From Candidatus Latescibacterota bacterium (GTDB lineage: Bacteria; Latescibacterota; UBA2968; UBA8231), in contig OZ220090.1 in NCBI GenBank assembly GCA_964291625.2, positions 256,001 through 320,000 on the forward strand: DNA of 64,000 nucleotides, in the 5' to 3' direction. Under the pieces are notes generated by a model, which did not search any database, had not been told where the DNA came from, and saw only the letters and a program-made list of their open reading frames with translations. Positions 7,549-64,000 of this stretch are shown piece after piece. Position numbers and translations under genes: made by a program. Numbering within the stretch: the first letter of the stretch is position 1; the number at the start of each line of letters is the position of its first letter.

Positions 7549-7570
7549 GCGAGCAATCCTCCCGGGGGTC

Positions 7571-8653: not shown

Positions 8654-9132
8654 CCGCGCCGTCTCCGGGGGGGCCTGACTTCCAGGTAGACCACCTGGCT
8701 CTCCTCGTCTATGATCAGCGGCGCCGGGTGCAGGCGCTGGCCGGCGTCGGCGGGAGGCCCGGAGAGGGCGACGCCGTCGGCGTCGAAGACGCCGTTGTGA
8801 CAGGGACAGAAGAAGCGCGCCCGCTGCGGCTGCCAGTGGACCTTGCATCCCAGGTGGGGGCAGGTCGAGCTGAAGGCCTGGAGGCCCTCCGGGGTGCGCC
8901 GCACCAGCACCTCGTTGCCCTCCAGGTCGAGGATGGTGCGCACCGTCCCGGGGGGGAAGGCCGCCACCGGCCCGACGAAGATCCGCCGCCGGGAGGCCCG
9001 GCGCGCGGGCAGGAGGAAGCCCAGGAACTGGCTCGCCAGGGTGCCGTACGCCGCCAGCAGGCCGGCGCCCATGAGCACCGACGCGAGCCACGAGCGGCGC
9101 GAGGGGCCGCCCTTGTCGCGCGTCTCCGTCAT
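8650..9132 (-). CDS. Rieske [2Fe-2S] subunit with Tat signal/anchor
   Basis: SRRSWL twin-arginine motif plus TM; CPHLGC and CPCH boxes. Confidence 0.95.
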   Translation of the reverse strand: MTETRDKGGPSRRSWLASVLMGAGLLAAYGTLASQFLGFLLPARRASRRRIFVGPVAAFPPGTVRTILDLEGNEVLVRRTPEGLQAFSSTCPHLGCKVHWQPQRARFFCPCHNGVFDADGVALSGPPADAGQRLHPAPLIIDEESQVVYLEVRPPRRRRG

Positions 9133-11845: not shown

Positions 11846-11882
11846 CGGCGCCTGCCGTCCGCAGCCATTCCAGGAGGATCCC

Positions 11883-14955: not shown

Positions 14956-15163
14956 GGGATCCACGACCACCTGAAGTCGCCGCGCTTCCGGGCGGCGGGG
15001 CAGGTCCGGGGCGGACGACCGCGCCCCGGGATGAAGGGCAGGCTCGCTCCGCCAGGCCACAATCCGGCCGTCAGGAGGACGGTCTGCAGCGCGGTGTTCC
15101 TCGATGGGACAGGGATACCTCGGGCCGCGCGGTGCAACTGTCAGGGCGAGGCCTCCGCCTCTG

Positions 15164-15198
15164 TTGACAATGTTCCCCTTGCCCTCGACCCTGGAATC
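15164..15198 (+). promoter_or_regulatory. Duplicate putative leaderless promoter
   Basis: TTGACA-17nt-GACCCT-6nt-ATG. Confidence 0.5.
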
Positions 15199-16758: not shown

Positions 16759-16765
16759 GGGCCCC

Positions 16766-31147: not shown

Positions 31148-31310
31148 CAAGGCCAAGGCCTCGGCCCTGGCGGCGCCCAAGGAGCGCTTGTTCCAGGGGT
31201 CGACTCGTATGCTCCTGGCTCGCCTGGTGGAGGATGAGGCAATCAGCGTCGAGGAGCTGGAAGGGCTGCGGCATGAGGTGCGGGCGGGGCGCGACGGAGG
31301 CGGACGGTGA
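31148..31310 (+). pseudogene. C-terminal remnant of a BlaI/MecI/CopY repressor
   Basis: KASALAAPKERLFQGSTRMLLARLVEDEAISVEELEGLR matches the BlaI dimerisation region. The winged HTH is absent. The stop overlaps the next start (GTGA). Confidence 0.7.
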
Positions 31311-34300: not shown

Positions 34301-37300
34301 TGGGCGGACGGATCGCCCCACGGCAACCACGGGCGGCTGGAGGGCGTGGCCCGGGCGCAGGCGGACGGAGTCCCCGTCGGCGAGTTGCACGCGCCGGCGC
34401 AGGCCCTGTGGCTGCTGCCGCCGCCGGCACCCGCCGGCGCCAGGGGAGGAGGCGACCAGCCGCGGGAGCCCGTGGTCGGCCGCACCGCCTTCGCCGTTCC
34501 CCTGTCGGGGATCACCGTCGACGGCCGTCTCGACGACTGGCCCGCCGACATGCCGGTCTACCGGGTGCGCGAGATCACCGACGCCTACGGCTCGACCGAC
34601 CTGACGGACACCGATCTCGACTCCAGCCTCGACTTCAGCCCCTCCTTCCGGGTCGGGTACAGCCTCGAGGAGGAGCGAGTCTACGTGGCCATCCAGGCGC
34701 GGGACGACCGCGTCCACGTGACCCACCGCAACGTGCGGTCCACCGACGCCGGCGAGATCTACCTCGGCGGCCGCCTGGGCACGGAGCCGTTCTGCTACAG
34801 CCTGGTCCCGCCCGGGGGCAGCTATCGTCCGGCCGGCAACCCGCTGGTCAGCTTCTACGACTGGGACATGGAGTGGCCGGCCGGCCGCGTGGGGGCCGAG
34901 ATCGTCTTCGGGCGCTCCGGAGACGTGAGCGTGTACGAGTGGTCGCTGCCGGCGCTCGGGGCCACGCCGGAGGACGTGGTCCCTCTCGCCCCGGCCAACA
35001 TCCTGCCCTTCGACGTGGTCGCCGTCGACAGCGACGAGCCGGGCGACACCTCGTCCTGGATCGCCTGGGGCCGGGGCCGGCCCAAGAGCCGGTCCGAGCG
35101 CGTGGGCCGGCTGATCCTGGCCGAGCCCGGGCTGGGGATCCTCGACGTGCGGGCCCTCTCCTCCGGCGCCCCCGTGGCCGGAGCCCGCCTGGAGCTGTGG
35201 CGCCACGGCAGGCTGGTGCTGGCCGACGAGACCGACGACAGCGGCCTGGCGCGGCACTGGCTGCCTCCGGGGCGCTACACCCTCGCCGCCGCTCCCCGCG
35301 GATACGAGTCCTTCCGGCGCCAGGTGAAGGTCCCCGCTGGCGGCTCGGTGCGGGTGGACGCGCCCCTCGTTGACAGGGGCACGCGGTTCCACGTGGACGA
35401 CGACGCGCCACCCGGCGGCGACGGCAGCGGCGGCCATCCCCTCGGGACGATCCAGGAGGCCCTGAACGCCGTCAGCTACGGCGACACCGTACAGCTGGCG
35501 CCCGGCGTCTACCGCGGGCCCCTGGAGCTGATCAGCGGCGTCACCATCCTCGGCGCCGGCCCCGATCGGACGCGGGTCACGGGGGAGGCCCACTGGGGAC
35601 TGGCCCGGCGCCCCTTCATCGGGTACTACAACGGCCTGTGGAGCGTGAAGCTGCGCGACGTGGTCATGGACGGCTTCACCCTCGAGGAGGGGGAGAGGTA
35701 TCCGGCGCGCCCGGCGCGGGAGGTCTCGGACGGGCTCGCCCTGGCCATGGCCGTGGACGCCGCCGACCCGGCCGCCGTGAGGGACATCCTCGAGCGCTCT
35801 CCCCAAACGGCCGCCGCCCGCATCCTGTCACCCGACGCCGACCCCCGGGGCAGCACCTTCCTGCACCGCATCGTCAGCGTCTACGCCGACGCCACCGACG
35901 CCGAGCACGAGATCGCCCGGCTGCTGATCGAGCACGGCGCCGACGTCAACGCCCTCGGCGGCCAGGCCCGGGGCCGCGGCGAGACCGCCCTCGGCTACGC
36001 CGGCTTCTTCGCCGACTCCCGCCTCGTGGAGCTCTACCTCGCCCACGGCGCCGACCCCAACCGCGTCAACCCGACGGGTGGGACGCCCGTGGACGCCACG
36101 GCCCGCGAGGGGTCGCACCAGCGCAACCGGCCCACCTTCATCCCCGCCTTCGAGGCCCTGGTCCGGGGGGGAGGCCGCTACCACCTGGGGCACCTCGTCC
36201 TGCTGGGCCACACGGAGCGCCTCGTGGCCGATCTCGACGGGGATCCCGACCTCGTCCACCAGCCGATCCCCCTCCGCTACGAGCCGGACGTGCGCGTCAC
36301 TCCCCTCCATCAGGCCGTCAACACCCACGACGAGGAGATCGCCCGGCTCCTGCTCGACCGCGGGGCCCGCGTCGACGCCGCCGACAGCCGGGGGCGGACA
36401 CCCCTGCTCCTGGCCGCCGGCAACGGCTCGGCCCCCGGGTTCGTCGAGCTGCTCCTCGGGAGGGGCGCCGACCTCGAGGCCCTCGACGCCGACGGCCGCT
36501 CTCCCCTGGCGCGGGCCGTCCACAACCGGCGCCAGGAGAAGGTGGACCTGCTCATGGAGCGGGGGGCCCGGGTCGACCTGTTCTCCGCCGCCGCCCTCGG
36601 GGACGAGGAGCGGGTGCGGGCCCTGCTCGCCGAGGACCCGCAGCGGATCCACGCCCGGGACGCGGACGCGAAATCGGTCCTCGGAGTCGCCCTCGATCAC
36701 GGGCAGGAAGGGCTCATCGACCTGCTCCGCGGGCATGGGCTGGACGACCCCGACGCCGAGCGCCGGATCCTGGCCCGCGCCGCTCTGACGGGGGGCGCGA
36801 GTCTGACCGAGGCGATGGCGGCGGGCGACGCGGAAGGGGTGCGGGGCCTCATCGGGGAAGGCGACTGGCTGACCGTCGGGCCCGGCGGCGCCCAGCTGTT
36901 CGAAGGGGAGACGCTGCAGGGGTGGTGGCCGCTCACCGGCGGGTGGCGCGTCGAGGGAGGACGCCTCCAGGCGGCGACCTCTCGCCGCATCCAGTTCCTG
37001 CTGTCCCAGTGGATCGCGCCCGGACCCTTCGAGCTGCGGGCGCAGGTGCAGCTGCTGGAGCGCGGCCTGAACGACGGCAAGATGCTGGGGTTCCTGGACG
37101 CCGCCGGCCGCTATGTGCAGATCACCCTCGACGACGAGCCGGACCGGCTCACCCTCCTGACCGGGCACAAGCATTTCGACGCCGACGGAGTGTATGGCAC
37201 ATGGAACGTGGAGAGCTCGGCGGAGCTGCCCATGGAGGAGGGCGCCTGGTACGAGGTGGTCTGCCGGATCGACGGCTCCACCTTCACGGCCTCGGTCGGG

Positions 37301-37408
37301 GAGGCGCGGCTGAGTCACCCCTTCGAGGTGGAGTTCCCGGTCTTCCTCTGGCTGGAGGTGCAGCGCACCGGCGGGGCCTTCCGGGGGCTGGGGGTTTCGA
37401 GGCTGTGA
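31307..37408 (+). CDS. 2033-aa multidomain protein: [CBM9-like, carboxypeptidase-regulatory, DUF1565-like, ankyrin] x2 with central LamG and C-terminal DUF1080-like domain
   Basis: ITVDGRLDDWP x2, RFHVDDDAPPGGD x2, GADVNA/TPLH ankyrins, ITLAAWVY...WAHVAATWDG...IDDVQIWN LamG, LFEGETLQGW...GGWRVEGG; hydrophobic N-terminus. Confidence 0.88.
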   Translation: MSMLSTVMAEAPRIGRVAGSVFVLAMAAGSALVASGSLRAEAEPAAWGGQRALAVPMSGITVDGRLDDWPSGIPVYPIRSNTNAYGETDISGADLDASLDFSPSFRAGYSLEEQRIYVAVEVRDDSVHARETGYQDTDALEIYLAARPEAEPVYYVLCPPGGAYGPGRPNPSVLVPGLGEMPLDRSGSRAAVGREGGTTIYEWALEPVGDSLEDLVELRAGMVLGFDVAAVDQDSETDTAAWISWTPPTRKFSGGGRIGGLVLGRAGGDLGPVAVRVEDESGEALAGAWFELWQDGLKLTAALTDGLGRASAAVPEGTYEIRVAAHGFRTRVLERRIAGDAPLDLDLVLEDLGTRFHVDDDAPPGGDAGEARPFATIAEALAICSPGDTVQLAPGTYDQPLELIPHVTILGAGAGRTRVAGEAHWGLGLRPFITYYGGRGEDMWAVHRPGVIMAGFTFDGGGEYPDRPAAEVSDLLAVVTAIGHRTLGTYATAEGAATVRDLLEARPGLASARIQAPGAWPGGSTLLHRVVSIYDDASDAEYEIARLLIEHGADVNALGGQARGRGETAVGYAGFFGDSRLVRLYLAHGGDPNGVGASGLTPLDVTAHEGSHVQGSTTHIPALEALIAAGGRHDPGHLVLLRHVRRLEAELDADPALVNAAIPLRHARDERGTPLHEAADGCDSEIARLLLDRGADVNARDTMGQTPLQRAARRGCGRELREGGREFLELLFERGAVDLTAAVVLGDAARVAAILEDDPGSVAAADPDGWTPLDVAVDKGHGEIEALLRGAGAPFGQNVEAMLREAPSGHGVRRVLARSDMESEEPAYLHVEPSESLDIRGAITLAAWVYRVADGGTAIGKWRQLGEAWSYVLHLSADDGFHLHWEDGTQSNLTDFAIPYHEWAHVAATWDGSRMSVYVNGELETQMRVAAGKRIASTDNPVWIGSSGYEDRTPGLIDDVQIWNVARTAEQIRESMLHGLRGDEPGLAGWWPMDAPRPWADGSPHGNHGRLEGVARAQADGVPVGELHAPAQALWLLPPPAPAGARGGGDQPREPVVGRTAFAVPLSGITVDGRLDDWPADMPVYRVREITDAYGSTDLTDTDLDSSLDFSPSFRVGYSLEEERVYVAIQARDDRVHVTHRNVRSTDAGEIYLGGRLGTEPFCYSLVPPGGSYRPAGNPLVSFYDWDMEWPAGRVGAEIVFGRSGDVSVYEWSLPALGATPEDVVPLAPANILPFDVVAVDSDEPGDTSSWIAWGRGRPKSRSERVGRLILAEPGLGILDVRALSSGAPVAGARLELWRHGRLVLADETDDSGLARHWLPPGRYTLAAAPRGYESFRRQVKVPAGGSVRVDAPLVDRGTRFHVDDDAPPGGDGSGGHPLGTIQEALNAVSYGDTVQLAPGVYRGPLELISGVTILGAGPDRTRVTGEAHWGLARRPFIGYYNGLWSVKLRDVVMDGFTLEEGERYPARPAREVSDGLALAMAVDAADPAAVRDILERSPQTAAARILSPDADPRGSTFLHRIVSVYADATDAEHEIARLLIEHGADVNALGGQARGRGETALGYAGFFADSRLVELYLAHGADPNRVNPTGGTPVDATAREGSHQRNRPTFIPAFEALVRGGGRYHLGHLVLLGHTERLVADLDGDPDLVHQPIPLRYEPDVRVTPLHQAVNTHDEEIARLLLDRGARVDAADSRGRTPLLLAAGNGSAPGFVELLLGRGADLEALDADGRSPLARAVHNRRQEKVDLLMERGARVDLFSAAALGDEERVRALLAEDPQRIHARDADAKSVLGVALDHGQEGLIDLLRGHGLDDPDAERRILARAALTGGASLTEAMAAGDAEGVRGLIGEGDWLTVGPGGAQLFEGETLQGWWPLTGGWRVEGGRLQAATSRRIQFLLSQWIAPGPFELRAQVQLLERGLNDGKMLGFLDAAGRYVQITLDDEPDRLTLLTGHKHFDADGVYGTWNVESSAELPMEEGAWYEVVCRIDGSTFTASVGEARLSHPFEVEFPVFLWLEVQRTGGAFRGLGVSRL

Positions 37409-38808: not shown

Positions 38809-40345
38809 ATGAAGCTGCAGGAGTCCATGGAGCTGGGCGGCCGCCACCTGCTGGGGTGGCTCGACCCGGAGCGGGACCACCTGCCGGCCGGCAGCTGGGC
38901 GATCACCCACGACCTCGGCCGGTGGTGGGACGCCATGCTGCGCCTGGAGGCGGCCACCGGGTTCGTCATCCCCGGCCACCTGGAGGGCGCCAGCCTGCGC
39001 AACCTGCACTGGCTCACCGACAACCCGGACGGCCTGCTGTGGGTGCCCCGGGGGCTCGACTGGCAGAAGATGAAGTTCGAGTTCCACAGCTTCCGCGAGG
39101 GCATCCTGGCCTTCGCCGCCCTGGCCCACTTCCGCGGCAGCGCCTGGGCGAGGCAGGCCGGCCGCCGCTACCTCGAGTCGATCGACCGGGGCCTCCGGCC
39201 CGACGGCTCGTGGGACGTGAACGCCTTCGCCTACATCGACGAGTACCGGCGCGGCGACAACCTGGAACCGGGCCACACCCCGGAGAACGAGACCCGCTTT
39301 CAGCTGACCGTCTCCCACGGCCGCTGCATCGAGGCGCTGATCTGGTATCACCGGTGGACGGGGGACCCCCTGGCCATGGACCTGGCCCACCGCCTGGCGG
39401 CGTTCCACCTGTCGTACTCCACCAACGACGAGGGCACCGTCCCGGACCATCTCGCGGCGGCGGACAGCGCCCAGGGCGACCGGCAGTCCTACCTCTACAC
39501 CCTGTGCGGCCTGCTGCTCTACGGCGTCACCACCGGTCAGGCGGAGTACGTCGACGCCGTGGTCCGCACCTATGCCACCGGCGTGCCGCGGATCGTCAAC
39601 GAGTGCGGCTGGGTGGCCCACGACCTCGGGCGCCTGGTCTTCCCGGACCAGACCGGCAATCCCCTGGCCAACACCGAGTCGACGGGGGCCGCGGCGCGGC
39701 TGGCCCTTTGGATGGCCATCCACCACGACGCCCGCTGCTACGACGACGTGGAGCGCCTGGTGCGGGCCCGCCTCTTTCCCGGACAGACCACCCAGGCGGA
39801 CCAGCGGGACCTGCCCGAGGAGGCCCGGGATGCAAAGGCGATCGGCGGGTGGGGGGGCAACGACTACCCCCACGCCGGCAAGGGCTACAACCCCAGCGGC
39901 ACCTCCGAGGTCGTGCACACCCTGAGCGCCATCTACCGGAACGTGGCGACCCGCGGTCAGAACGGGCTCTCCGTCAACCTGCACTTCGACTACGAGGACA
40001 AGGGCCTGCGGGTGGCCGTGGAGCGAGGCGTCACCTCCCGGCTCACGGTCGTGCCCAGGGGCCGCGACGACGTGCGGCTGCGCCTGCCGGGCTGGGCGCC
40101 CCCCGCGAGTGTGCGCATCACCGTCGACGGCGAGGCCGTTCCCGTGCGCCGGGTCGGCGCCTACGCCTGCCTGACGCGGGAGCAGTCCGGGCCGGCAGCG
40201 AGATCGTCCTGAGCCACGACTTGCCGGTGCGGCGGACCCGGGAGACGATGCCGGCGGGGGAGACCTACGAGTTCGCCTGGAAGGGCGACGAGATCACGGG
40301 CGTCCATCCGAACGAGCAGCCCCTGCCGTTCTATCCCACCCTGGA
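38809..40345 (+). CDS. GH127/beta-L-arabinofuranosidase-like protein, frameshifted near 40184
   Basis: HDLGRWWDAM helical domain and a C-terminal beta region (LSVNLHFD, VRLRLPGW). The natural tail EIVLSHDLPVRRTRE...WKGDEITG...LPFYP continues in a shifted frame. Confidence 0.65.
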
Positions 40346-41405
40346 CGATCCCCAGGGGACCGGGGACGGGTTCCGCGGGCAAAGCGGGACACCCGGGATC
40401 GAAGCCTGGTTCGAGGCGGTCCGTTCCAGGGACCTCGACCGGGTGCGGGCGGTCCTCGACGCGGACCCCTCCCTCGTGGACCGGCGCATCGCCGACGGCT
40501 TCGCCGAGCCCTGGACGGAGGCCGCTCCCGGGGACCGCAAGAGCAACACGGCCCTCCATTGGGCCGCGGTCCGCGGCTGGGGCAAGTCGTCCCTCGCCGG
40601 CCTCGCGCAGACCCTCATCGACTACGGGGCCGACGTCGACGCCATGGGCTACAACGGCAACAAGGGCGTGGCCCCGGCCGTGGTCCTGGCCGCCTGGGAG
40701 GGCGACCTCGAGGTCCTGCGGGTGCTGCTGGAGAACGGCGCCGACCCCAACCGCCCGGCCTCGGCTGAATCGGCCCTCTACGCCGCCATCGAGCACACGG
40801 ACCCGGACGCGCCCGAGCCCAACAAGGTGAGCCTGCTGCTGGAGCACGGCGCCGAGCACGATGTCTTCACCGCGGCCATGACCGGCCGCTCCGACCTGGT
40901 GGAGTCGCTGCTGGACGAGTACGACCCGCTCCTCGAGCGCCGCAGCCTCAAGCGCCACCGCACGCCCCTGGAGGAGGCGGTCCACTTCGGGCGCTGGGAG
41001 ACGGCGGAGCGGCTCGTCGAGAGGGGGGCCGCCGTCTCCGTGCACGCGGCCTCGGCCCTGGGCCGCACAGACCTGCTGGCGCGGATCCTCGACGCCGACG
41101 CGGAGCAGCTGGAGGCGCGGGACGACAGCCAGGAGACGCCCCTGCTCATGGCCGCCCGCCACGGCCGCGCCGAGGCCGTCGAGCTGCTGCTGCGCAGGGG
41201 AGCCGATCCCGACACGGAGAACCGCTGGCAGATCGGCGCCCTGCGCGAGGCGGTCGGAGGAGGATACGCGCGGACGGCGGAGCTGCTGCTGGCGGCCGGC
41301 GCCGATCCGGCGAAGGTCGACCGCGCCGGAAGGACCGCCGGCGAGCGGGCCGATCCCGGGGACCGGGCGCTGATCGAGGTGCTCGACCGGTACGACGCGC
41401 GATGA
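40346..41405 (+). CDS. Ankyrin repeat region, in frame with the GH127-like C-terminal tail (boundary approximate)
   Basis: NTALHWAA, GADVDA, GADPN, RTPLEEA, ETPLLMAA repeats; no independent start is evident. Confidence 0.8.
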
Positions 41406-42502
41406 CACCGGGACAGACCAAGGGGTTCTGGCAGCGGGCCTTCCTCCCCGAGGAGCAGCGGCCGCTCACGCCCGCCGAGTCGGCGCTGGTCATCGCCGCC
41501 ACCTACGGGAAGGCCTGGTCGCCGGAGAAGAGCCTCCACAGCTACACCCTGAGGGCCCATCACCTGTCTCCCGACGTCGGCCGGATGACGGAGCTCATCG
41601 AAGCGGATCCCGGCCTCCTCGAGTCGATCGGCCCGGCCCTCGCCTGCCTGACCACGACCCTCCCCGGATGCGCGGCGAGCCTGAAGCTCCTGCTGGAGCG
41701 CGGCGTGCCCCTGCGCATCGACCCGGGGGAGTACAACGTCCTCCACGAGGCCAGGGCCGAGACGGCGCGGGTCGTCTTTGAGGCGGGCGCCACGGACGCA
41801 ACCGGCGTGGCGCCCACGGTCCACACGGGCTGGCCGAACAACGTCACCCTGCTCTACTGGCCTGCCGTCTTCGGCGGCAGCGACGACGCGGTGGAGCACG
41901 TCGAGGTCCTCCTCGACTACGGCGCCGATCCCGAGGTCGGGATCCAGGGCAACGGCGAGCGCGGCAACACGGTCCTTCAGGAGGCCGTCTCCCCCTACGG
42001 TCCCGGGCAGGAGGGGAAACGGCGCGTCGCCCGCAAGCTGATCGAGCGCGGCGCCTTCTACGACGTGCTCTCCGCCTGCGGCCTGGACGACCTGCAGCGC
42101 GTGCGCGAGTGCGCGCGCGAGGCCGACGTCATCACCTTCCGTGGCGAGGCCGACATGACGCCCCTCCACTGGGCGGCTCGATCGAATGCCCTGGCCTGCA
42201 CCAAGTGGCTGCTGGACCGGGGCGCCGGGATCGAGGCGCTCACCAGGGCGCACAACACGCCCCTGCACTTGGCGGCGGAGCGGGGCGCGGCCGAGGCCGT
42301 GTGGCTGCTCGTCGGCCACGGCGCCGACATGAGCGCCCAGGACAGGAAGGGCCGCACACCCCTGCACCGGGCGACCTACAACGGCCACGTCGACGCCGCC
42401 GAGGCGCTGATCGTCTGCGGTGCCGACACGAGGATCGAGACGAGGACGGGCAAGACGCCCCTGCAGCTGGCCCAGATGGACTGCCGGTTCCTGCGGGGCT
42501 GA
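41402..42502 (+). CDS. Ankyrin repeat protein
   Basis: MTPLHWAA, NTPLHLAA, RTPLHRA, KTPLQLA; ATGA overlap with the previous stop. Confidence 0.9.
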   Translation: MTPGQTKGFWQRAFLPEEQRPLTPAESALVIAATYGKAWSPEKSLHSYTLRAHHLSPDVGRMTELIEADPGLLESIGPALACLTTTLPGCAASLKLLLERGVPLRIDPGEYNVLHEARAETARVVFEAGATDATGVAPTVHTGWPNNVTLLYWPAVFGGSDDAVEHVEVLLDYGADPEVGIQGNGERGNTVLQEAVSPYGPGQEGKRRVARKLIERGAFYDVLSACGLDDLQRVRECAREADVITFRGEADMTPLHWAARSNALACTKWLLDRGAGIEALTRAHNTPLHLAAERGAAEAVWLLVGHGADMSAQDRKGRTPLHRATYNGHVDAAEALIVCGADTRIETRTGKTPLQLAQMDCRFLRG

Positions 42503-49303: not shown

Positions 49304-50080
49304 TCACCCCGGCTGCACGATGAAGCGGGCCAGCTCCCTGCCGCGCGGGGACAGGGTCTCGTAGAGATCTCGCGGCAGCGAGGGACCCAGGTCGGGCAGG
49401 CGGAACCACGGCGCCAGGTACCCGACGCTGGTCATGGGCCGGATCTCGTCGGAGTCGTTGGCCGTGCCGCCGTGCCAGCATCGCACGTCCCGGATGACCG
49501 CCGTTCCGGCCGGGGCGCAAAGGATCGACTCCTTCATGCGCGCCGGCTCCTCCTCCATCTTCGGCGCCGGCTGGCGGGTGCGGTGGGTTCCCGGCACGAA
49601 GCGGATGGCGCCGTTGATCTTCCTGAACTCGACCATCAGGAAGTTCACGACGATGTACGGCGTCGGCACGTCGTGGAGCGTCACCTGTCCCAGCGGATCG
49701 TTGAGGACGTCCCGGATATCGGCGTGCAGGTGCTGCTCCCTGGCGCCGGGAGCGGAGTAATCCCCGCCGCCGCCGGAACAGATGAAGCCGGGGCTTCCCC
49801 AGATCGCCTCCAGGATCGGAAGGATGGCCGGCAGGTCGATGAGCTGCACCCACTCCGGGTGGTGCAGTTGGGGCCCGAAGGAGTAGCGGGCATGGCCCCG
49901 GTTGGCGCTCTCGAGGGGGATCTCCGCCATCTGCTGCGCCATGACGCGGGAGGCGCCCGCCCGGGCGAACTCGAGCTGTTCGGGGCTGAGGGCATCTCCG
50001 ATGGGGACGAACCCGTCCCGATGGAAGATGGCCGCCGCCCTGTCGACTTCGCTGGGAGAGAGGATTTCGACGTCGAGCAT
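49304..50080 (-). CDS. Phytanoyl-CoA dioxygenase (PhyH) family Fe(II)/2OG oxygenase
   Basis: FHRDGF, QHLHAD, NGAIRFVPGTH, WHGGTAN, R. Confidence 0.92.
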   Translation of the reverse strand: MLDVEILSPSEVDRAAAIFHRDGFVPIGDALSPEQLEFARAGASRVMAQQMAEIPLESANRGHARYSFGPQLHHPEWVQLIDLPAILPILEAIWGSPGFICSGGGGDYSAPGAREQHLHADIRDVLNDPLGQVTLHDVPTPYIVVNFLMVEFRKINGAIRFVPGTHRTRQPAPKMEEEPARMKESILCAPAGTAVIRDVRCWHGGTANDSDEIRPMTSVGYLAPWFRLPDLGPSLPRDLYETLSPRGRELARFIVQPG

Positions 50081-56247: not shown

Positions 56248-56505
56248 ATGGACAATTCAGGACGGAGCGACATTGTGCTGGACAAGGTCATCCAGCGCGA
56301 TCCGGAAATCCACAGTGGCGATCTGGTCTTCGCCGGCACGAGAGTCCCGGTAGACAGCCTGGTGAGCTATCTCAAGGGAGGACACTCCATCGAGGAGTTT
56401 CTCCAGGACTATCCCACCGTCGAGCGCTGGCAACTGGAGTCATATCTCGACCTCTCTTCGGATGGACTGGATCACCTGAGGACGCGGGATGCGAGTGCTT
56501 CTTGA
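56248..56505 (+). CDS. DUF433 antitoxin
   Basis: IQRDPEIHSGDLVFAGTRVPV...EEFLQDYPTV. Confidence 0.92.
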   Translation: MDNSGRSDIVLDKVIQRDPEIHSGDLVFAGTRVPVDSLVSYLKGGHSIEEFLQDYPTVERWQLESYLDLSSDGLDHLRTRDASAS

Positions 56506-56818
56506 TGAGGATATACCGATCCGGCTCAGGCTGCACTTCAGGGCGGAAGCGACGGTGGAGACGGTGGAGTATCGCGGTTGGAAGGGTTTCAGGAACGGGG
56601 CGCTTCTGCGCGTCGCCCAGGAAGAGTTCGATGTTCTTGTGACCATGGACAACAGTCTCCCCGACCAGCAACCGGTTGGGCAATTCGATCTGGGTGTTGC
56701 AGTCTTGCGCCCTTCCAGCAGAACCCTCGAGGACCTCGTGGCGTTGGTGCCTGTACTGGAGCGACACCTCGCCAAGATCAGGCCGGGGGATGTGGTCCGG
56801 ATCCATCCTTCCAGGTAA
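56489..56818 (+). CDS. DUF5615 PIN-like toxin (VapC45-like)
   Basis: MRVLLDEDIP, GWKGFRNGALL, FDVLVTMD; overlaps the DUF433 gene. Confidence 0.9.
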   Translation: MRVLLDEDIPIRLRLHFRAEATVETVEYRGWKGFRNGALLRVAQEEFDVLVTMDNSLPDQQPVGQFDLGVAVLRPSSRTLEDLVALVPVLERHLAKIRPGDVVRIHPSR

Positions 56819-56845: not shown

Positions 56846-57703
56846 TCACCCCTTCAGCGCCCCCACCGTGATCCCCTTCGTGAGGTACTGCTGCAGGAAG
56901 GCGTAGACCAGCATGGTCGGCGCCATGATCAGCACCAGCCCGGCGAAGGCCATGCCCCAGTCGCTGCGGTACTGGCTGACGATGGTGATGTTGGCCAGGC
57001 CCAGGGGCAGGGTGCGCAGCTCCTGGGATCCCTCTCCCGAGAGGAACATGAAGGCCATGAAGAACTCGTTCCACGTGGCCAGGAAGGAGAAGATCCCCAC
57101 CGTGATCAGCCCCGGGCGGGCCAGGGGCAGCATGATCGACCAGAAGGCCCGGAACTCGCCGGCGCCGTCCATCAGGGCCGATTCGTGCAGGCTCGAGGGC
57201 AGGGACTTGAAGAAGCCGGTGAGGATGAAGACGGCGAAGGGCATGCCGAAGGCGACGTAGACGATGAGGATGCCGAGGCGCGAGTTGAGGAGGCCGAAGT
57301 CCTTCATCTGGAAGAACAGGGGCACGATCGACAGCTGCAGGGGGATCATCAGTCCGGCGAGGAAGTAGAAGAACAGGGGGCGCACGCCGGGAAAGGTGAA
57401 CCGCGCCAGGGCGTAGGCGGCCATCGCCGCCAGCAGCATCGACGCCGCCACCGTGGTCACCGTGAGCAGGACGCTGTTGAAGAAGTAGTCGCCGAAGAAT
57501 CCCTTGGTCCAGGCGTTGGTGAAGTTGACCCACTGCAGGTCGCCGAGCTCGGGCAGGCTGAAGGGGTCGAGGAAGATCTCGCGGTCCGTCTTCAGCGACG
57601 TGTAGAGCAGCCAGAGCATGGGGTAGACGACGATCGCCAGGTAGCCGAAGAGGGCCGAGTAGAGGAAGGGCTTGATGAGGGTGTTGGTGCGTCGCTCGGC
57701 CAC
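56846..57703 (-). CDS. Carbohydrate ABC transporter permease (CUT1, MalG-like)
   Basis: ESALMDGA EAA loop, WNEFF, LQQYLTKGITVGALKG. Confidence 0.95.
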   Translation of the reverse strand: MAERRTNTLIKPFLYSALFGYLAIVVYPMLWLLYTSLKTDREIFLDPFSLPELGDLQWVNFTNAWTKGFFGDYFFNSVLLTVTTVAASMLLAAMAAYALARFTFPGVRPLFFYFLAGLMIPLQLSIVPLFFQMKDFGLLNSRLGILIVYVAFGMPFAVFILTGFFKSLPSSLHESALMDGAGEFRAFWSIMLPLARPGLITVGIFSFLATWNEFFMAFMFLSGEGSQELRTLPLGLANITIVSQYRSDWGMAFAGLVLIMAPTMLVYAFLQQYLTKGITVGALKG

Positions 57704-57705
57704 GG

Positions 57706-60003
57706 TCAGAACTCCACGGCTTCGCGCTTCATGGCGCGCAGGGTGGCGGTGGTGCCGAAGAACACGATCAGGAAGAGGAGAACGGCGATCGCCGTCGCCT
57801 CTCCCACCTTGAACTCGGTGAACATGGCCTGAACCATCCTCGTGCCGATGACGTGGTTGTCGGTGGTGGGCCGCTGGTTGGTGAGCAGCCAGATCACCTC
57901 GAAGGCCTTCATGCCGCCGATGATCATGAAGACGATGGAGATCGACAGCACTTCCCAGATGAGGGGGATGGTGATCGACCGGAACTGGCGCCACGCCGAG
58001 GCGCCGTCGATGTCGGCCGCCTCGTACATGGTCTGGGGGATGCTCTCCATGGCCGCCAGGAAGAGGATCATGTTGAACCCGGCGGCGCCCCAGATCGACA
58101 TGGGGATGAGCGCCCAGTAGAGGTTGTCCTGGGCCAGCCAGGCGAAGCCTGCGAACTGGTCGAAGCCGAGGGCCGTGAGCACCGTGTTCACCGGGCCGCC
58201 CTGGGGGTTGTAGAGGTGCATCCACAACAGGGTGGCGGCCACCCCGCCGAGGATGTTGGGGAAGAAGAAGGCGATGCGGAAGAGCTTGGCCCCCACTACG
58301 CCGCGGCTGATGCAGACCGCCAGGAACAGCGCAAGGGGCAGCACGCAGGCGGGGATGACGAACATGATGAAGAGGTTGTTCGACAGGGCGACCCAGAACT
58401 CGTCGCTCTCGAAGAGCAGGCGGTGGAAGTGGAGCAGCCCCACGAAGGACATCTCGGTGAGTCCGTCCCAGCGCATGGTGCTCCACAGGAAGGACTTGAC
58501 ACTCGGGACGATGACGAAGAGGGAGTAGAACACGGCCGCCGGCCCGACGAAGAAGGCGACGCCGCGCCAGTTCATGCGCACGGTGCTGTTGGGTTTCGGC
58601 GCCTCGCCGGCGCGCTTCTCCCGCCACTGGCGGATCGTGGTGTAGAGCCAGAAGCCCATGGCCAGCCCCAGCAGCCCCAGCAGCAGGGCCGGCTTCCACA
58701 AGTGGCGCACGGTGACGTCCTCGGGGTGGGTGGCGCGGTTGCGCACCGCCAGCGCCGCCGACTCCAGCTCCCGGGCCCCTTCCTCGGGGGTGATCTCGCC
58801 GTTGACGATCTTGAAGCGCGTGTCGTTGAGGAACTGGTCCATCTCCGGGAAGCCCTCGCCGGGGGCGGTGCCGTAGGTCGTGGTCGCCCGCCGGGCCATC
58901 TCCACCAGGTCCTGCAGGTCGGCGCTGGTGCGGCCCTCCATCGACCCCTCGACGGCGACCAGGATGTCGCGCATCTCGGCGAAGGTGCCGGCCTGCTCCC
59001 GGGAGGTCATGAAGCGCAGGAAGTCGACGCCCAGCTCCGGGCGCGCGCTCTCGCGGAAGACGAAGTAGTAGCCGGCGCCGGTGTACACGGCGTTCGGGTC
59101 GCCCACGCCGCCCTCGACGGCGGGGAAGTTGAACGCCCCCAGGCGGAAGCCCTCGGGGATCTTGCCGAGCATCTCGCTCTTCAGCCACGAGCCGCAGAAC
59201 ACCATCGCCGTGTGGCCGAGGAAGAACTCGAGCTGCGCCTCGGTGTGGCTCATGCCGAGGGCGCCGGGCTGGAAGTAGTTCACGGCGGTGCGCTGGATCA
59301 GGCCGAGGGCGGTGACGAACTCGGGGTTGTCGAAGCTGCCCGGCACCAGGTCCTTCTGCTCGTAGTAGCGGTCGCGGCCGGCCAGGTGGTAGTAGGCGTT
59401 GTCGGTGACGCCCCCGATGTAGCCGGGGTACCGCCCCTGGAAGGCCAGCGGCGCGATGCCGGCCTGCTGGATCGTCTCGCAGAGGGCGAAGAACTCGTCC
59501 CACGTCCGCGGCGGCGTCCAGCCGTGCTCCTCGAACATCCCCTTGTTGTACCAGATGGCGTAGATCGAGTAGAGGAAGGGGATGCCGTAGGTCCGGCCCT
59601 CGTGCTGGTAGCGCTCCAGGCTGCCGGGCAGGAAGGAGTCGCGCCAGGTGCGGTCGCCCTCCCAGCTCGGCCCGTCGAGATAGTCGTCGAGGGGCAGGAT
59701 CTCGCCGTTGCGGATCAGGGCCCAGTAGTTGAGGCCGGCGTTGCTGACCTCGGGGAAGGTCCCTTCGAGGATGCGCACCCGCACCTTGTCGGCGATGCGG
59801 GGATCGCCGTAGAGATCGACCTCGACGTCGGGGCGGACCTTCTCGTACTCGCGGGCGGCGTGGAAGAAGAAGCTCAGCCCCTCGCCGCCCTCGAAGACGG
59901 GCACCTCGATGCGGGTCCGCTCCTCGGCGGCGGCCGGGGCCAGCAGGGCGGCGAGCGGGAGCAGCCCGCTCAGCATCCGTCGAGGGAGTGCGCCCGTCAG
60001 CAA
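57706..60003 (-). CDS. Fusion of an extracellular solute-binding protein and a CUT1 permease (MalF-like)
   Basis: N-terminal SBP (YGIPF, WYNKGMFEEHG, PRTWDEF, GSWL) in one frame with a permease (YEAADIDGA, ITIPL). Confidence 0.9.
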   Translation of the reverse strand: MLTGALPRRMLSGLLPLAALLAPAAAEERTRIEVPVFEGGEGLSFFFHAAREYEKVRPDVEVDLYGDPRIADKVRVRILEGTFPEVSNAGLNYWALIRNGEILPLDDYLDGPSWEGDRTWRDSFLPGSLERYQHEGRTYGIPFLYSIYAIWYNKGMFEEHGWTPPRTWDEFFALCETIQQAGIAPLAFQGRYPGYIGGVTDNAYYHLAGRDRYYEQKDLVPGSFDNPEFVTALGLIQRTAVNYFQPGALGMSHTEAQLEFFLGHTAMVFCGSWLKSEMLGKIPEGFRLGAFNFPAVEGGVGDPNAVYTGAGYYFVFRESARPELGVDFLRFMTSREQAGTFAEMRDILVAVEGSMEGRTSADLQDLVEMARRATTTYGTAPGEGFPEMDQFLNDTRFKIVNGEITPEEGARELESAALAVRNRATHPEDVTVRHLWKPALLLGLLGLAMGFWLYTTIRQWREKRAGEAPKPNSTVRMNWRGVAFFVGPAAVFYSLFVIVPSVKSFLWSTMRWDGLTEMSFVGLLHFHRLLFESDEFWVALSNNLFIMFVIPACVLPLALFLAVCISRGVVGAKLFRIAFFFPNILGGVAATLLWMHLYNPQGGPVNTVLTALGFDQFAGFAWLAQDNLYWALIPMSIWGAAGFNMILFLAAMESIPQTMYEAADIDGASAWRQFRSITIPLIWEVLSISIVFMIIGGMKAFEVIWLLTNQRPTTDNHVIGTRMVQAMFTEFKVGEATAIAVLLFLIVFFGTTATLRAMKREAVEF

Positions 60004-60007
60004 GGGG

Positions 60008-60433
60008 TCAGGGAAGCTCCACGACCACGTACTGTTCCTCCACCGAGACCGGGTAGGTCTCGACCACGTACGGCCCCTTGCGCGGGCCGGCCACCTCCTC
60101 GCCCGCCACCACCTCCACGTCGTAGCTCCGGGTGCGGGTGCGGGCCGGGTCCCACCAGGACTGGCCGGTCCGCACGTCGAACTCCCAGCCGTGCCAGGGG
60201 CAGCGCAGGATCTCCCCCTGGCGGGTGTAGGTGTAGTCCCCCGGGCCCCGCGACTGCAGGAAGCCGGTGAGCCGCCCCTTGCACAGGGGGCCTCCCTGGT
60301 GGGCGCAGCGGTTGCGCAGGGCGAAGAACTCCCCCTCGAGGTTGAAGACGCCGATGGAGCGGCCCTCGATCTCCACGATCTTGCGGCCCCCCGGCGGGAT
60401 CTCCGCCAACGTGCCGACCACGTGCCGCGCCAT
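60008..60433 (-). CDS. Soluble Rieske (2Fe-2S) ferredoxin
   Basis: NRCAHQGGPL and RCPWHGWEFD; own ATG (MARHVV) at 60433. Confidence 0.92.
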   Translation of the reverse strand: MARHVVGTLAEIPPGGRKIVEIEGRSIGVFNLEGEFFALRNRCAHQGGPLCKGRLTGFLQSRGPGDYTYTRQGEILRCPWHGWEFDVRTGQSWWDPARTRTRSYDVEVVAGEEVAGPRKGPYVVETYPVSVEEQYVVVELP

Positions 60434-60444
60434 GCGTGTTCCGC

Positions 60445-61549
60445 TCAGTCCAGCCCGTAGAGCCGGCGGGCGTTCCCGGCCAGGATCGACCTTGCGCAGC
60501 TCCCGGTCGAGCCGCGCCGGCAGTGCCTGCGCCGGCGAGTCGAAGTCCCAGTGGGGGTAGTCGGTGGCGAACATGAGATGGTCGTCCATCTCCATCCACC
60601 CGAGCATCTGCTCGAAGTACTCCGGGTCGGGGGGCTCCTCCATGGGCTGGGTGGTCACCCAGAAGTGGTCGCGCACGTACTCCGAGGGCGGCCGGCGCAG
60701 GCGGCCCAGCTCGGCGCCCATGCGCTTCCAGCAGTGGTCGAGGCGCCACATGAGCGGCGCCAGCCACGAGAACCCCCCTTCGATGAGGACCACCTTCAGG
60801 GTGGGGAAGCGCTCGAAGACGCCTTCGTACACGAGGCTGGCCACCTGGGGCTGGAAGGACTGGGGCATGCCGCCGTGGTCCTCCACGTAGTGGGAGGGCC
60901 AGCCGGCGCCGGTGATCGGCCCGCCCCCGGCGCCGCCGAAGTGGATGGCCACCGGCAGGTCGTGGCGCGCGGCGGCCTCGTACATCTTCCAGTACTTGCG
61001 GTGGCCCAGGGGCTCGCGGGTGCGCACCAGCAGCAGCAGCTGCAGAAAGCCGGGGTGGCCGCCCATGCGGTCGACCTCGGCCGCGGCCAGCTCGCCGTCC
61101 TCGTAGGGCACCACGATGGAGCCGCGCATCCGCGGCTCCGGCTCGATCCACTCGGCGAGCTGCCAGTCGTTCATCGCCCGGCAGAGGGCGGCGCCGTACT
61201 CCAGGTTGACGTCCCCGCCGGCGCGGATGAGGGGGGTCATGATGCCGTAGTCGATCTCCCACTCGTCCAGCAGCTGCATCCGCAGGAAGTCCAGGTCCGA
61301 CCCCGGCGGCCCTCCCGAGGGCGGCCAGGAGTCGTGGCGCGCCGCGTTCGGCGCGATCCGCGGGTACGCCGAGCCGACGTGGCCGCGCATGCCGATGGTG
61401 CGGTGGTGCTCCCGCCACTCCGCCGGCAGGAACCGCTCCATCGTCCCGTCCTCGGGCATGGTCACGTGGATGTCGGCGTCGATCACGGCCAGCTTCTGCG
61501 GCCGTTCCGCCGCGGCGGGGGCCGGTTCGACGAGCGTGGTCGTTCCCAT
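60445..61549 (-). CDS. Amidohydrolase_2-fold protein (probable dinuclear oxygenase catalytic subunit), frameshifted near 60490
   Basis: IDADIH, PVAIHFGG, IEGG, TTQPMEEP, FATDYPHWD; the natural end ILAGNARRLYGLD-stop is in a shifted frame. Confidence 0.88.
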
Positions 61550-61563
61550 CTGCAGGTCCTCCT

Positions 61564-62628
61564 TCACAGCCGGTAGAAGGCGCGGGCGTTCTCCGACCAG
61601 ATCCGTTCCGTCAGGGCCTCGTCCAGGCGCACCGGCCAGGCCTCCGCGGGCGAGTCGAACCACCCGTGGGGGTAGTCCGTGGCGAAGAGGAGCATCTCGT
61701 CCGAGTCCATCTGCCCGATGATCTGCCCCAGCGGCTCCGGGTCCGCCGGCGCGTCCCAGGGCTGCACGGTGAGGCGGATGTGCTCGCGCATGTACTCCGA
61801 CGGCGGGCGCCTCACCCACGGCGTGTCGCTGCGCAGGCCCTTCCACTCCTTGTCGAGGCGCCACATGAGCGACGGCATCCAGGTGAACCCGCCCTCGACG
61901 AGGGCGACGCGCAGCCCCGGGAAGCGGTCGAAGGCGCCCTCCATGATCAGGCTGTTCACCTGGGACTGGAAGAGGGCGGCCATGCCCGCGTACTCCTCGA
62001 CGAAGCTCGTGGGCCATCCCGAGGGGGTCGACGGGTGGCCAGCGGCGCCGCCGTAGTGGATGGCCACGGCCAGGCCGTGGCGCACCGCCGCCTCGTAGAT
62101 CGGGTCGTGGCGCCGGTTGCCGTAGGGGACCAGGGAGCGCACCGGCAGGATCACCTGCACGAAGCCGGGGACGCCGCCGACGCGGTCGATCTCGGCGGCG
62201 GCCAGCACCGGGTCCTGGGACGGGACCACCACCGAGGCCCGCAGCCTCGGCTCCGGCTGCAGCCACTCCTCGATCTGCCAGGTGTTGACGGCCGCCGCCA
62301 GGGCCGCCCCGAGGTCGGCGTTGTGCACCGACGAGGCCTGGTAGTTGCAGGTCAGGACCCCGCGCTCCAGCTCCCAGGGGTCGAGGACGTGGTTCCGCAC
62401 TTGTTCCAGGGTGGACCCCGGTCCGTCGCCTTCGCCCCGGAAGTCGGGCCGGGCCGTCAGCGGCAGACCCGGCGGATAGTCGGAGGCGTCGGGTCCGCGG
62501 AAGCCCGAGTGGGTGGTGTAGTCGACCCAGTGGTCGGGCAGGTACGCCTGCAGGCCCTCGAGGGTGGGCGCGTTGTGGATGTCGCAGTCGATGAGGGGGC
62601 GGCCCCCGCGGTCGCCGAGGGTCTGCAC
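61564..62628 (-). CDS. Amidohydrolase_2-fold protein (partner subunit)
   Basis: IDCDIH, VAIHYGG, VEGG, FATDYPHGW, ENARAFYRL. Confidence 0.9.
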   Translation of the reverse strand: MQTLGDRGGRPLIDCDIHNAPTLEGLQAYLPDHWVDYTTHSGFRGPDASDYPPGLPLTARPDFRGEGDGPGSTLEQVRNHVLDPWELERGVLTCNYQASSVHNADLGAALAAAVNTWQIEEWLQPEPRLRASVVVPSQDPVLAAAEIDRVGGVPGFVQVILPVRSLVPYGNRRHDPIYEAAVRHGLAVAIHYGGAAGHPSTPSGWPTSFVEEYAGMAALFQSQVNSLIMEGAFDRFPGLRVALVEGGFTWMPSLMWRLDKEWKGLRSDTPWVRRPPSEYMREHIRLTVQPWDAPADPEPLGQIIGQMDSDEMLLFATDYPHGWFDSPAEAWPVRLDEALTERIWSENARAFYRL

Positions 62629-62630
62629 CG

Positions 62631-63383
62631 TCAGAACCGCTCCAGCAGCAGGCCGGTGATGGCGTTGGGCCGCTGGTAGTAGCGGCGCGTGGCCTCGTCC
62701 GCCTCAGCCCAGAGCCGCCGCGGGAAGATCGTGTAGTTGCTGATCGGCGGCGCCGAGCGGCGACCGCAGTAGATGTGGATGGTGCGCCGCTCCACCGGGC
62801 TGCGGCGCACGTTGCCGGCGTGGAACATGCCGGCGTTGAAGAGGATCGCCGTGCCCTTCTCCCCCTCGACGTGGTGGGCCGTGTCCAGGTCGTAGTGGTC
62901 CAGGGGCGGCAGCTCGTCGCCCTGGGCCGAGCCGGGGATGAGGCTGAAGGTGTGGGCGGTGGCGTCCACGTCGCTCAGGTAGTAGGCCACGGAGAGGTAG
63001 TGGGTGGAGTACGGAGGCCGGGAGCCGAGTTGCGGCCAGCCGCCGCCGTCCCGGTGCCAGTTGCAGTAGGGCTCGCCGTCGTGGGGCCGGCGGATGCGCA
63101 CCGAGTGTTCCTCGGCGCACAGCTCGGGCCCGAGGATCGCCTCCAGCAGCGGCAGCAGGGACGGGGGCCGCATGGTGACGTCCATCTCCTCGTGGGCCAG
63201 GAGCATGTGCACGTTGAGGGTGACGTGGCCCTCCTCGCGCTCGGTCCAGAACGGCGAGCCGGCGGCCAGGTCGCGGTCGATGGCGTCGTTGGCGGCCTCC
63301 ACCTGGGCGGCGTCGAGGGCGCCGGGCACCACGAGGTACCCGGTGCGGGCATAGCGCTCCAGCTGGTCTGCAAACGCGTTCAT
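62631..63383 (-). CDS. PhyH family Fe(II)/2OG dioxygenase
   Basis: GYLVVPGAL, WHRD, IPGS, FHAG, RRTIH. Confidence 0.88.
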   Translation of the reverse strand: MNAFADQLERYARTGYLVVPGALDAAQVEAANDAIDRDLAAGSPFWTEREEGHVTLNVHMLLAHEEMDVTMRPPSLLPLLEAILGPELCAEEHSVRIRRPHDGEPYCNWHRDGGGWPQLGSRPPYSTHYLSVAYYLSDVDATAHTFSLIPGSAQGDELPPLDHYDLDTAHHVEGEKGTAILFNAGMFHAGNVRRSPVERRTIHIYCGRRSAPPISNYTIFPRRLWAEADEATRRYYQRPNAITGLLLERF

Positions 63384-63442
63384 GGCAGCCGGGGACGATA
63401 GTCCCGGGGGACCGCCGCCGTCCACATGGACCGGGGGGCGGC

Positions 63443-64000
63443 TCACGCGGTCCAGGGCTCCGGGTCGGCGAAGAGGCAGCGGGCCTCCGGACCCAGGCGG
63501 GCGGCCGCTTCCGGGCTCAGGGCGCTGGAGAACACCATGTGCGGGTCGTCGCGCCGGCAGAAGAAGCTGGTGAGGCTGTGTCGCGCCTCGCCGCTGTCGT
63601 TGCGGGTCGTGCCGTGCCACATGTGGCTGTTGATGACGACCACGGTGCCGGCCTCGCCGGGCACCAGCCTCTCCTCCGGGTGGGGCGCGGCCGGGTCCTC
63701 GAGGACGTCCGGAGCCTGCCCCCGGAGGTGGGTGCCGGGGATCACCCGGGTGGCGCCGTTGGCTTCGGTGAAGTCGGAGAGCATCCAGATCGAGTTGCCG
63801 ACCGCGCAGCGCCCGGGCGGCGGCGGCGGGCCGTTGTAGTCGACGTGGAGCTTCTGCTGCTCCGCGCCGGGGGGATGGGGCCGGCCGTGGACGCCAAAGG
63901 ACTTGATGTGCCCGTCGAGGAGGTGGCAGACGGCGGCCAGCACCCGGGGATGGGTGAAGCAGATGTCGAAGCCGGCCGACTTGTTCTGCATGTAGCTGGA
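63443..64000 (-). CDS. PhyH family Fe(II)/2OG dioxygenase, 5' end outside the window
   Basis: LHVD, NGATRVIPGTH, WHGTTRN. Confidence 0.88.
   Translation of the reverse strand, partial: SSYMQNKSAGFDICFTHPRVLAAVCHLLDGHIKSFGVHGRPHPPGAEQQKLHVDYNGPPPPPGRCAVGNSIWMLSDFTEANGATRVIPGTHLRGQAPDVLEDPAAPHPEERLVPGEAGTVVVINSHMWHGTTRNDSGEARHSLTSFFCRRDDPHMVFSSALSPEAAARLGPEARCLFADPEPWTA

Follow-up and report, generated by a model that had tools for sequence, protein, structure and literature searches.

The DNA analysed here (hereafter the window, 64,000 nucleotides) belongs to Candidatus Latescibacterota bacterium (assembly GCA_964291625.2, contig OZ220090.1, positions 256,001 to 320,000), and from position 56,846 to its end it carries seven genes, among them a pair of amidohydrolase-fold proteins (AH1 and AH2) followed by a soluble Rieske ferredoxin. 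The pair was compared with the amidohydrolase-related dinuclear oxygenases (AROs), in particular with the two-subunit enzyme AibH1H2, in which the subunits are called H1 and H2. Reciprocal loss of two short motifs between H1-type and H2-type proteins, together with a docking model, suggests a role for the H1 subunit. The features are, in window coordinates and in order of transcription:

63443 to beyond 64000 (5' end outside the window), minus strand: PhyH1, Fe(II)/2-oxoglutarate dioxygenase (Pfam PhyH 8.7e-18; 251 aa in the related locus L001)
62631-63383, minus strand: PhyH2, Fe(II)/2-oxoglutarate dioxygenase, 250 aa (Pfam PhyH 2.2e-16)
61564-62628, minus strand: AH1, Amidohydro_2, predicted AibH1-type partner subunit, 354 aa (motif FATDYPHGW)
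60445-61549, minus strand: AH2, Amidohydro_2, predicted AibH2-type catalytic subunit (motif FATDYPHWD; stop in the shifted frame at 60445-60447)
60008-60433, minus strand: soluble Rieske [2Fe-2S] ferredoxin, AibG-like, 141 aa (Pfam Rieske 7.7e-16)
57706-59976, minus strand: fused CUT1 SBP_bac_1 and BPD_transp_1, i.e. a substrate-binding protein (SBP) joined to a MalF-type permease, 756 aa (Pfam domains)
56846-57703, minus strand: second CUT1 permease, BPD_transp_1 (MalG type), 285 aa (Pfam domain)

The first-pass annotation, made from the letters alone, had described seven co-directional genes with these domains, and open reading frames (ORFs), G+C content at third codon positions (~0.9-1.0 in the coding frames) and Pfam matches bore it out. 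From PhyH1 to the MalG-type permease, the intergenic gaps measured 59, 2, 14, 11, 31 and 2 nt. The range of 2-14 nt previously given for the last six genes was therefore roughly right: it holds for the gaps of 2, 14, 11 and 2 nt, but the gap between the Rieske and SBP genes is 31 nt with the ATG common to relatives (4 nt with an upstream TTG start), and the 11 nt between AH2 and the Rieske gene exist only because a frameshift was allowed for, there being otherwise no gap. Upstream of PhyH1, 800-1200 nt were without a called gene in L001-L003, so that the seven genes probably make up the whole operon, with PhyH1 probably its first gene; a promoter and terminator scan of L001 gave nothing above shuffles. 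Gene order was kept in L001-L003, with proteins 88-98% identical. The four closest loci (L001-L004) showed 91-95% nucleotide identity and were labelled as Ca. Latescibacterota or Gemmatimonadaceae metagenome-assembled genomes. The full set of relatives comprised 80 GTDB loci, with 81 AH2-type copies and 70 AH1-type rows (fragments included).

The order of two amidohydrolase paralogs followed by a Rieske gene stood as first described, but it had been overlooked that AH2 as written lacks a stop and reads in frame into the Rieske gene as one ORF of 513 aa. Compared with all four closest relatives, the window has one extra base near 60489, which shifts the last ~13 codons of AH2; in the same four, AH2 ends in ...ILxGNARRLYGLD* and the Rieske protein is encoded by a separate gene. 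Two other window genes shared with L001, a lactonase (55150) and a BNR-repeat gene (51391), also carry single-base frame-breaking indels relative to it, and the assembly therefore looks error-prone. The join is very likely an assembly error. A genuine fusion, or a genuine mutation of the strain, would agree with the sequence as given and with nine protein-collection matches that combine an amidohydrolase domain with Rieske-like sequence; it is nonetheless improbable, as the extra base is missing from the relatives, no fused ORF occurred among the 78 loci with a Rieske gene, the join would destroy a conserved C-terminal helix, and the window has further indels of this kind. As for the nine matches, all were single-member, single-contig clusters and all looked frameshifted by eye, and a natural ARO-Rieske fusion was rejected for this reason (longer Rieske relatives, 768 candidates). 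This Rieske type was recurrently fused to a PDR-type reductase, i.e. AibG and AibF in one chain (P0002, P0004, P0005, P0007-P0009, P0011, P0015, P0021). A protoglobin domain (PF11563) was likewise recurrently joined to Rieske domains (P0016, P0017, P0019, P0020, P0023-P0027, P0029).

AROs are defined by D-x-H and D-x-P-H-x-[D/E] motifs on the PF04909 fold (PMC13154177). AH2 displayed both, as D26-I27-H28 and as the C-terminal DYPHWD, and its site residues were D26-I27-H28, T105, H203, E257, D330, H333, W334, D335 and F336. All six metal ligands were present, seven site residues were invariant in the 81 AH2-type copies, and D-x-P-H-x-[D/E] was kept in every one of them. A pocket segment, Y220 and E222-D-H-x-G-M227 (numbering in A2), was also invariant in the clade. 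The best PDB score was 323 bits for AH2, against AibH2, and 262 bits for AH1, against 8SM7; over both proteins, low-potential AROs reached 159-323 bits and decarboxylases at most 48. A Rieske gene lay within 10 kb in 78 of the 80 loci (within 700 nt in 56), which answers the call for a linkage survey with a conserved association, and AH1 stood directly upstream of AH2 in 64 of 80.

The pair almost certainly consists of AROs of the AibH1H2 kind, as first proposed, and not of hydrolases. Hydrolases or mononuclear decarboxylases (ACMSD/LigW type) would fit the database names, since Pfam gives Amidohydro_2 only and NCBIfam no name, and standard pipelines would indeed label the proteins as hydrolases, as the first-pass annotation foresaw. 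With the decarboxylase scores so far below those of the low-potential AROs, the ARO motifs present and the Rieske gene conserved nearby, this alternative is extremely improbable. Clustering with ACMSD, LigW or LigJ, which had been named as the result that would speak against an ARO, was not seen; a structure model of AH1 (predicted local distance difference test, pLDDT, 81) matched chain A of AibH1H2 best, with a template modelling (TM) score of 0.87 against ~0.7 for decarboxylases. The further statement that a paired amidohydrolase plus Rieske arrangement defines AROs did not hold, because SfbO and three others are homodimers (PMC10811679, supplement).

On its sequence, AH2 is a member of the low-potential AROs, with a predicted redox-active dimetal site and predicted O2 turnover. 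Manganese use is predicted from a hydrophobic gamma1, a hydrophilic gamma2 and an aromatic gamma4 residue (PMC13154177), and AH2 has I27, T105 and W334 at these positions, along with an aromatic gamma5 (F336); the gamma2 residue T105 was placed by alignment to the SfbO Thr and not by a published residue number. The AH2 site probably contains Mn (Mn/Fe-preferring).

AH1 possesses D16-I-H18, H191, E245, D318 and H321 and thus holds all six direct ligands, but G322-W323 replaces the W-D of AH2, and the resulting DYPHGW breaks D-x-P-H-x-[D/E]. Both motif variants had been read correctly in the first-pass annotation, but not their significance, namely that the ARO motif is complete with WD and broken with GW; the dimetal-ligand check that it recommended accordingly returned a full motif for AH2 only and an AibH1-like partner for AH1. 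Among AH1-type rows, the last motif Asp was found in 0 of 70, and 35 of 68 had Gln or Asn in place of the second His ligand. AH1 and AH2 were 49% identical, compared with 28% for AibH1 and AibH2. The best PDB scores of AH1 were 262 bits (8SM7), 237 (AibH2) and 222 (AibH1). At the level of family profiles, AH1 scored 317 bits with AibH1 against 295 with AibH2, and AH2 scored 387 with AibH2 against 235 with AibH1. AibH1 itself keeps the last His, misses an equivalent of Asp342, and is mononuclear and non-catalytic but essential; with AibH1GF or AibH2GF on its own, no product formed (PMC7782822). AH1 lacks a complete ARO motif and is classed, by sequence, as an AibH1-type partner and not as a catalytic ARO; it is quite likely non-catalytic.

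AH1 also carries a patch, D259-K-x-W-K-G-L-R-x3-P270-W271, and the R-x3-P-W surface patch within it was present in 68 of 70 AH1-type rows and in 0 of 81 AH2-type rows. A tree of 105 sequences (79 of 150 representatives, being those of full length with both motifs, plus 24 locus copies and the 2 window proteins) resolved H1 and H2 as separate clades with a FastTree support of 1.00 each, and as sisters (0.98) under a midpoint root. Among representatives at 50% identity, the H1 clade had the PW patch in 18/19 and the motif Asp in 1/19, the H2 clade had the patch in 0/13 and the Asp in 13/13, and the remaining representatives had the patch in 44/47 and the Asp in 44/47. The tree had no outgroup and no clade-rejection test, and the direction of the loss is inferred from its midpoint root. 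The same split appeared in plasmid-borne pairs from outside the original sample (Alphaproteobacteria and Rhodococcus; 12 of 86 records fetched, with 7 annotated ARO pairs and 4 solo genes tested and the unannotated pair L090 outside the motif test): the PW patch was in H1 and the Asp in H2 in 7/7 pairs, and 3 of the 4 solo genes kept both. In alignments, the AROs 8SM6, 8SM7 and 8SM9, which are homodimers (PMC10811679, supplement), each combined the two features, Asp and PW patch, within a single chain. This reciprocal-loss pattern was not found stated in the literature searched, a search outside which lay subscription papers, figures and the rest of the supplements.

The Rieske protein has the cluster ligands C43-x-H45 and C78-P-W-H81, and an insertion loop (~residues 57-70) that is missing from dioxygenase ferredoxins. 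A three-chain prediction, with window AH1, L001 AH2 and the window Rieske protein as partner, scored 0.66, the best control 0.01; the score mark is reached by 116 of 157 solved complexes and by 2 of 215 mismatched pairs. Runs shared at least 69% of contacts, the pLDDT of the partner was at least 74, and replacing AH2 abolished the score. In the prediction, Rieske H81 and H45 face AH2 333-337 (L001 numbering, the W-D-F loop) and AH1 G264, with the insertion loop (59-67) on AH1 P270/W271. The model supports Rieske binding without being a demonstration of it, and is consistent with an AH1-AH2 heteromer, only the Rieske chain being scored and a similar heterodimer being already solved. It tips the balance slightly towards docking of the Rieske protein across both subunits. 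In solved AibH1H2, K282 and Y287 of AibH1 pack on D342 and F341 of AibH2 (PMC12141560). By hand count on the alignment these correspond to K260 and L265 in the patch segment of AH1 (K260 in 69 of 70 AH1-type rows), and the H1 segment therefore adjoins the catalytic loop in a real structure. For a complex between an ARO and a Rieske protein, the literature covered offered an AlphaFold3 model only (PMC13154177).

AH1 and AH2 likely form an AibH1H2-type heteromeric monooxygenase with the Rieske protein as electron donor. A reductase encoded elsewhere would reduce the Rieske cluster, and the ferredoxin would then dock as in the one model obtained, its cluster His facing the D330-F336 loop of AH2 and its insertion loop resting on the R-x3-P-W patch of AH1. 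By the chemistry of AibH2 and SfbO, the dinuclear Mn/Fe site of AH2 would activate O2 and hydroxylate a C-H bond. AH1 would take no part in catalysis, clamping the catalytic loop of AH2 and supplying half of the ferredoxin site; the reciprocal loss suggests that AH1 and AH2 split the functions of a homomeric ancestor. A more far-reaching reading, to which we give a probability of roughly 0.5, is that the H1 of AibH1H2-type oxygenases is a ferredoxin-docking subunit born by subfunctionalisation. Homomeric AROs would combine the catalytic-loop Asp with an R-x3-P-W patch acting for the adjacent chain; once the gene had duplicated, H1 would have kept the patch only and H2 the catalytic loop only, which would make the heteromer obligate. 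The same estimate covers, jointly, the view that the clade is a subfamily of H1-H2 pairs conserved in uncultured members of the Latescibacterota, Poribacteria, Chloroflexota and Acidobacteriota, in which the pocket is distinctive and invariant and no reductase is linked.

Several observations count against the proposed two-subunit oxygenase and its docking H1. The 80 loci were phylogenetically clumped, ~21 of them being near-identical Caldilineaceae. At the motif position, one representative of the H1 clade carries Glu and 3 of the 47 other representatives have neither D nor E; the fourth solo plasmid gene is of H2 type, directly after an IS5 transposase. The AH1 profile ranked three homomeric AROs (324-344 bits) above AibH1 (317 bits). 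In the complex prediction, the controls did not replace AH1, AH2 came from L001, and the AH1-AH2 geometry may be borrowed from solved AibH1H2. Two reductase queries had no match, either across the window or across the 80 loci, and comparisons with PDB, NCBIfam and conserved neighbours yielded no substrate evidence. Ten of the 80 loci, each with the full 10 kb upstream, have AH2 and no AH1 (2 more have too little flank). The D342A variant of AibH2 keeps its metals and its activity is only diminished (PMC10401708), and AH1, with its six ligands kept, could therefore be dinuclear and weakly active. These last points also favour an arrangement in which AH1 and AH2 are both catalytic and dinuclear, carrying out two oxidation steps or forming two homomers that share one ferredoxin. 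Such an arrangement is unlikely given the missing Asp and the frequently replaced second His in AH1-type rows, and given that AibH1 is mononuclear and neither Aib subunit yielded product alone (PMC7782822).

If H1 is indeed a docking subunit, two short motifs would be enough to tell, by sequence only, whether any given ARO is a homomer, an H1 or an H2. The role of AibH1 has been called elusive (PMC10401708, PMC12141560), and help in electron transfer was put forward as speculation only (PMC7782822); the residues named by the reciprocal loss and the docking model allow that role to be tested in AibH1H2 itself. For annotation, the window AH1 would pass as catalytic under a six-ligand filter, and a census by DxPHx[D/E] omits it. 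At family level the locus is ordinary: the catalogued AROs already number ~17,000, with 3,307 of them Rieske-linked (PMC13154177), and a catabolic role of ARO-Rieske-permease operons was predicted in 2023 (PMC10401708). The locus also points to a subfamily of predicted Mn/Fe C-H hydroxylases that is widespread among uncultured lineages of aquatic and sponge type.

Electron supply and import appeared to be incomplete within the operon. As first noted, it contains no ferredoxin reductase and no importer ATPase, and no reductase match was found in the whole window; a reductase was present in 6 of 11 annotated plasmid loci. The CUT1 importer parts, SBP_bac_1 and two BPD_transp_1 permeases, were present, and a MalK-type ATPase was found neither in the operon nor within L001-L004; the one UgpC-like match in the window, at 19311, is an exporter-type ATPase. 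CUT1 systems commonly share a distant ATPase. In the fused protein, the SBP spans ~1-425 and membrane helices start at 430. Its closest NCBIfam model was NgcE (a GlcNAc/chitobiose SBP), at 219 bits under a cut-off of 400, none of the seven genes received an NCBIfam name above cut-off, and the SBP had no PDB match. Both PhyH proteins belong to PF05721. Read by eye from the translations, PhyH1 has an H-V-D...H triad with the distal Arg and PhyH2 an H-R-D...H triad with Arg; the two were 26% identical over 111 aa, and PDB matches for PhyH were weak (best 36 bits). A third, unlinked PhyH gene lies at 49304-50080 of the window (minus strand), in line with an expanded family.

The first-pass annotation combined the importer and the two oxygenase classes into one pathway, and this was not established. 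Orthologs of the fused SBP occurred in 4 of 80 loci and orthologs of both PhyH genes in 3, all among the closest relatives, and a single pathway is unproven because the transporter and PhyH links hold in so few loci; that PhyH, importer and ARO act together is possible but rather doubtful. We give even odds to an accretion, in which one lineage co-transcribes the ARO triad, two of the many PhyH genes of the genome and a widespread type of fused sugar importer, none of them sharing a substrate, a view that bears on the substrate and not on the oxygenase itself. The narrow ortholog counts fit it, and other Latescibacterota have MlrC-SurE-DHDPS after the Rieske gene instead. The SBP-permease fusion forms a large separate family (444 of 8000 scored candidates matched, some of them under Armatimonadota and Planctomycetota names). 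In 40 of the 80 loci, PhyH-like genes of other types lay at most 10 kb away, with no fixed position or strand, and the family exceeds 1.9% of genes in Poribacteria (PMC3909097), so that PhyH presence is weak evidence. Accretion is countered by the tight gaps and by the order and high protein identity kept in L001-L003, by a different PhyH that directly adjoins the core in the same orientation in L005 and L066, and by CUT1 importers flanking 4 of 7 annotated ARO pairs in cultured bacteria, although those SBPs are at most 30% identical to the window SBP over at most 128 aa.

If the genes do act in one pathway, a small polar amino- or sugar-type compound would enter through the CUT1 importer and be unblocked by hydroxylation or oxidative N/O-dealkylation. 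We name such a compound as the substrate only tentatively, and neither 2-aminoisobutyrate (AIB) nor an SfbO-type sulfonate is meant; a sulfonate pocket of the SfbO type was rejected because R232 and R235 of SfbO align to H225 and M228 of AH2, so that both Arg are missing. Demethylation of 2'-O-methylnucleosides (PMC12709175) is a candidate role for the PhyH proteins. Clustering of 1133 neighbour genes, from a rough ORF caller, gave no gene other than the triad that the lineages have in common; the neighbours tend towards catabolism of sugars or sugar acids (GFO, DHDPS, enolase, aldolase, AKR, TPP enzyme) but differ by lineage. Besides CUT1 importers, one annotated cultured pair was accompanied by a glycosidase and one by DhaKL. 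In L081 (Roseomonas gilardii plasmid), a trehalase-family glycosidase precedes an H1-H2 pair with a CUT1 importer; in L083 (Microvirga terrae plasmid), an H1-H2 pair with a CUT1 importer is followed by DhaK/DhaL and a PDR reductase.

Other loci of the survey displayed further arrangements. In the 21 Caldilineaceae loci (within L046-L080; e.g. L046, 12023-13536 and downstream), AH1-AH2 were followed, in most cases after an MscS gene, by a third ARO in which the motif Asp and the PW patch are both retained (21/21). After it came a different Rieske gene and, in the usual case, genes for a class III aminotransferase and an APH-family kinase. A kinase next to a pyridoxal-phosphate enzyme is reminiscent of hydroxylysine kinase and phospho-lyase; the set may represent a hydroxylate-phosphorylate-eliminate route, and as a lead to a substrate it is better than the window. 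L066 (3-4295) carries two tandem H1-H2 pairs and one Rieske gene, then PhyH, MlrC, SurE, ornithine cyclodeaminase-like and DHDPS-like genes. In L020 and L022, one contig carries the triad twice, in opposite orientation and with the same layout, either a real duplication or an assembly artefact.

Elsewhere in the window, a DUF433 and DUF5615 gene pair (56248-56818, plus strand), presumably toxin-antitoxin-like, directly follows the operon in the opposite orientation; in L002 and L003 this place is taken by a different gene of ~1100 aa. Rieske, cytochrome b and multihaem cytochrome c genes of an alternative bc-type complex lie at 5953-9132 (minus strand). Enolase-superfamily genes duplicated in tandem, and a tandem array of three ABC-2 membrane genes of which two are similar 519-aa copies, occupy 10691-12992 and 13396-18163 (plus strand). 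A 2033-aa ankyrin/LamG protein and two more ankyrin-repeat proteins are encoded at 31307-37408 and 40227-42502 (plus strand); eukaryote-like ankyrin-type repeats are common in sponge symbionts.

Compared with known systems, the importer and dioxygenase parts of the operon were standard in their domains. The SBP resembles those of NgcE-like CUT1 importers; it is fused to its permease, as is common in that family, and the ATPase is unlinked. The PhyH proteins have the domains of PhyH-family Fe/2-oxoglutarate dioxygenases, with intact metal triads. Neither SBP nor PhyH had a close characterised relative in the PDB comparison. The high-potential diiron AROs PtmU3 and DitZ share the TIM barrel dimetal oxygenase scaffold but scored only 45-58 bits; they have a hydrophilic gamma1, largely no Rieske partner, and biosynthetic or diterpenoid substrates. 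SfbO and the homodimeric low-potential AROs D3EI84, W7L2Y2 and B6JH23 (PMC10811679, PMC13154177; PDB 8SM6-8SM9) have the same ligands, gamma1/2/4/5 pattern and Rieske neighbour as AH2, but are homomers, in contrast to the H1-H2 pair of the window; SfbO also differs in its sulfate-binding Arg pair.

The closest counterpart is AibH1H2-AibG-AibF, the 2-aminoisobutyrate monooxygenase of Rhodococcus wratislaviensis (PMC7782822, PMC10401708; PDB 6M1W, 8FUN). The order H1-H2-Rieske is alike, H2 has the full site in both, and H1 in both keeps the last His without an equivalent of Asp342. Unlike the aib cluster, the window operon has no linked aibF reductase; no dehydrogenase, decarboxylase or APC permease is found among its seven genes, which include a CUT1 importer and two PhyH instead, and the pocket segment reads YVEDHGGM in AH2 against YHTEYHTGH in AibH2. 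Identity with the aib system proper was rejected, with no reductase match in the window or in 80/80 loci and aibD1/E/C/T/A missing from the seven genes. The locus would work like AibH1H2-AibG but is not the aib system, and AH2 is not filed as an AIB hydroxylase.

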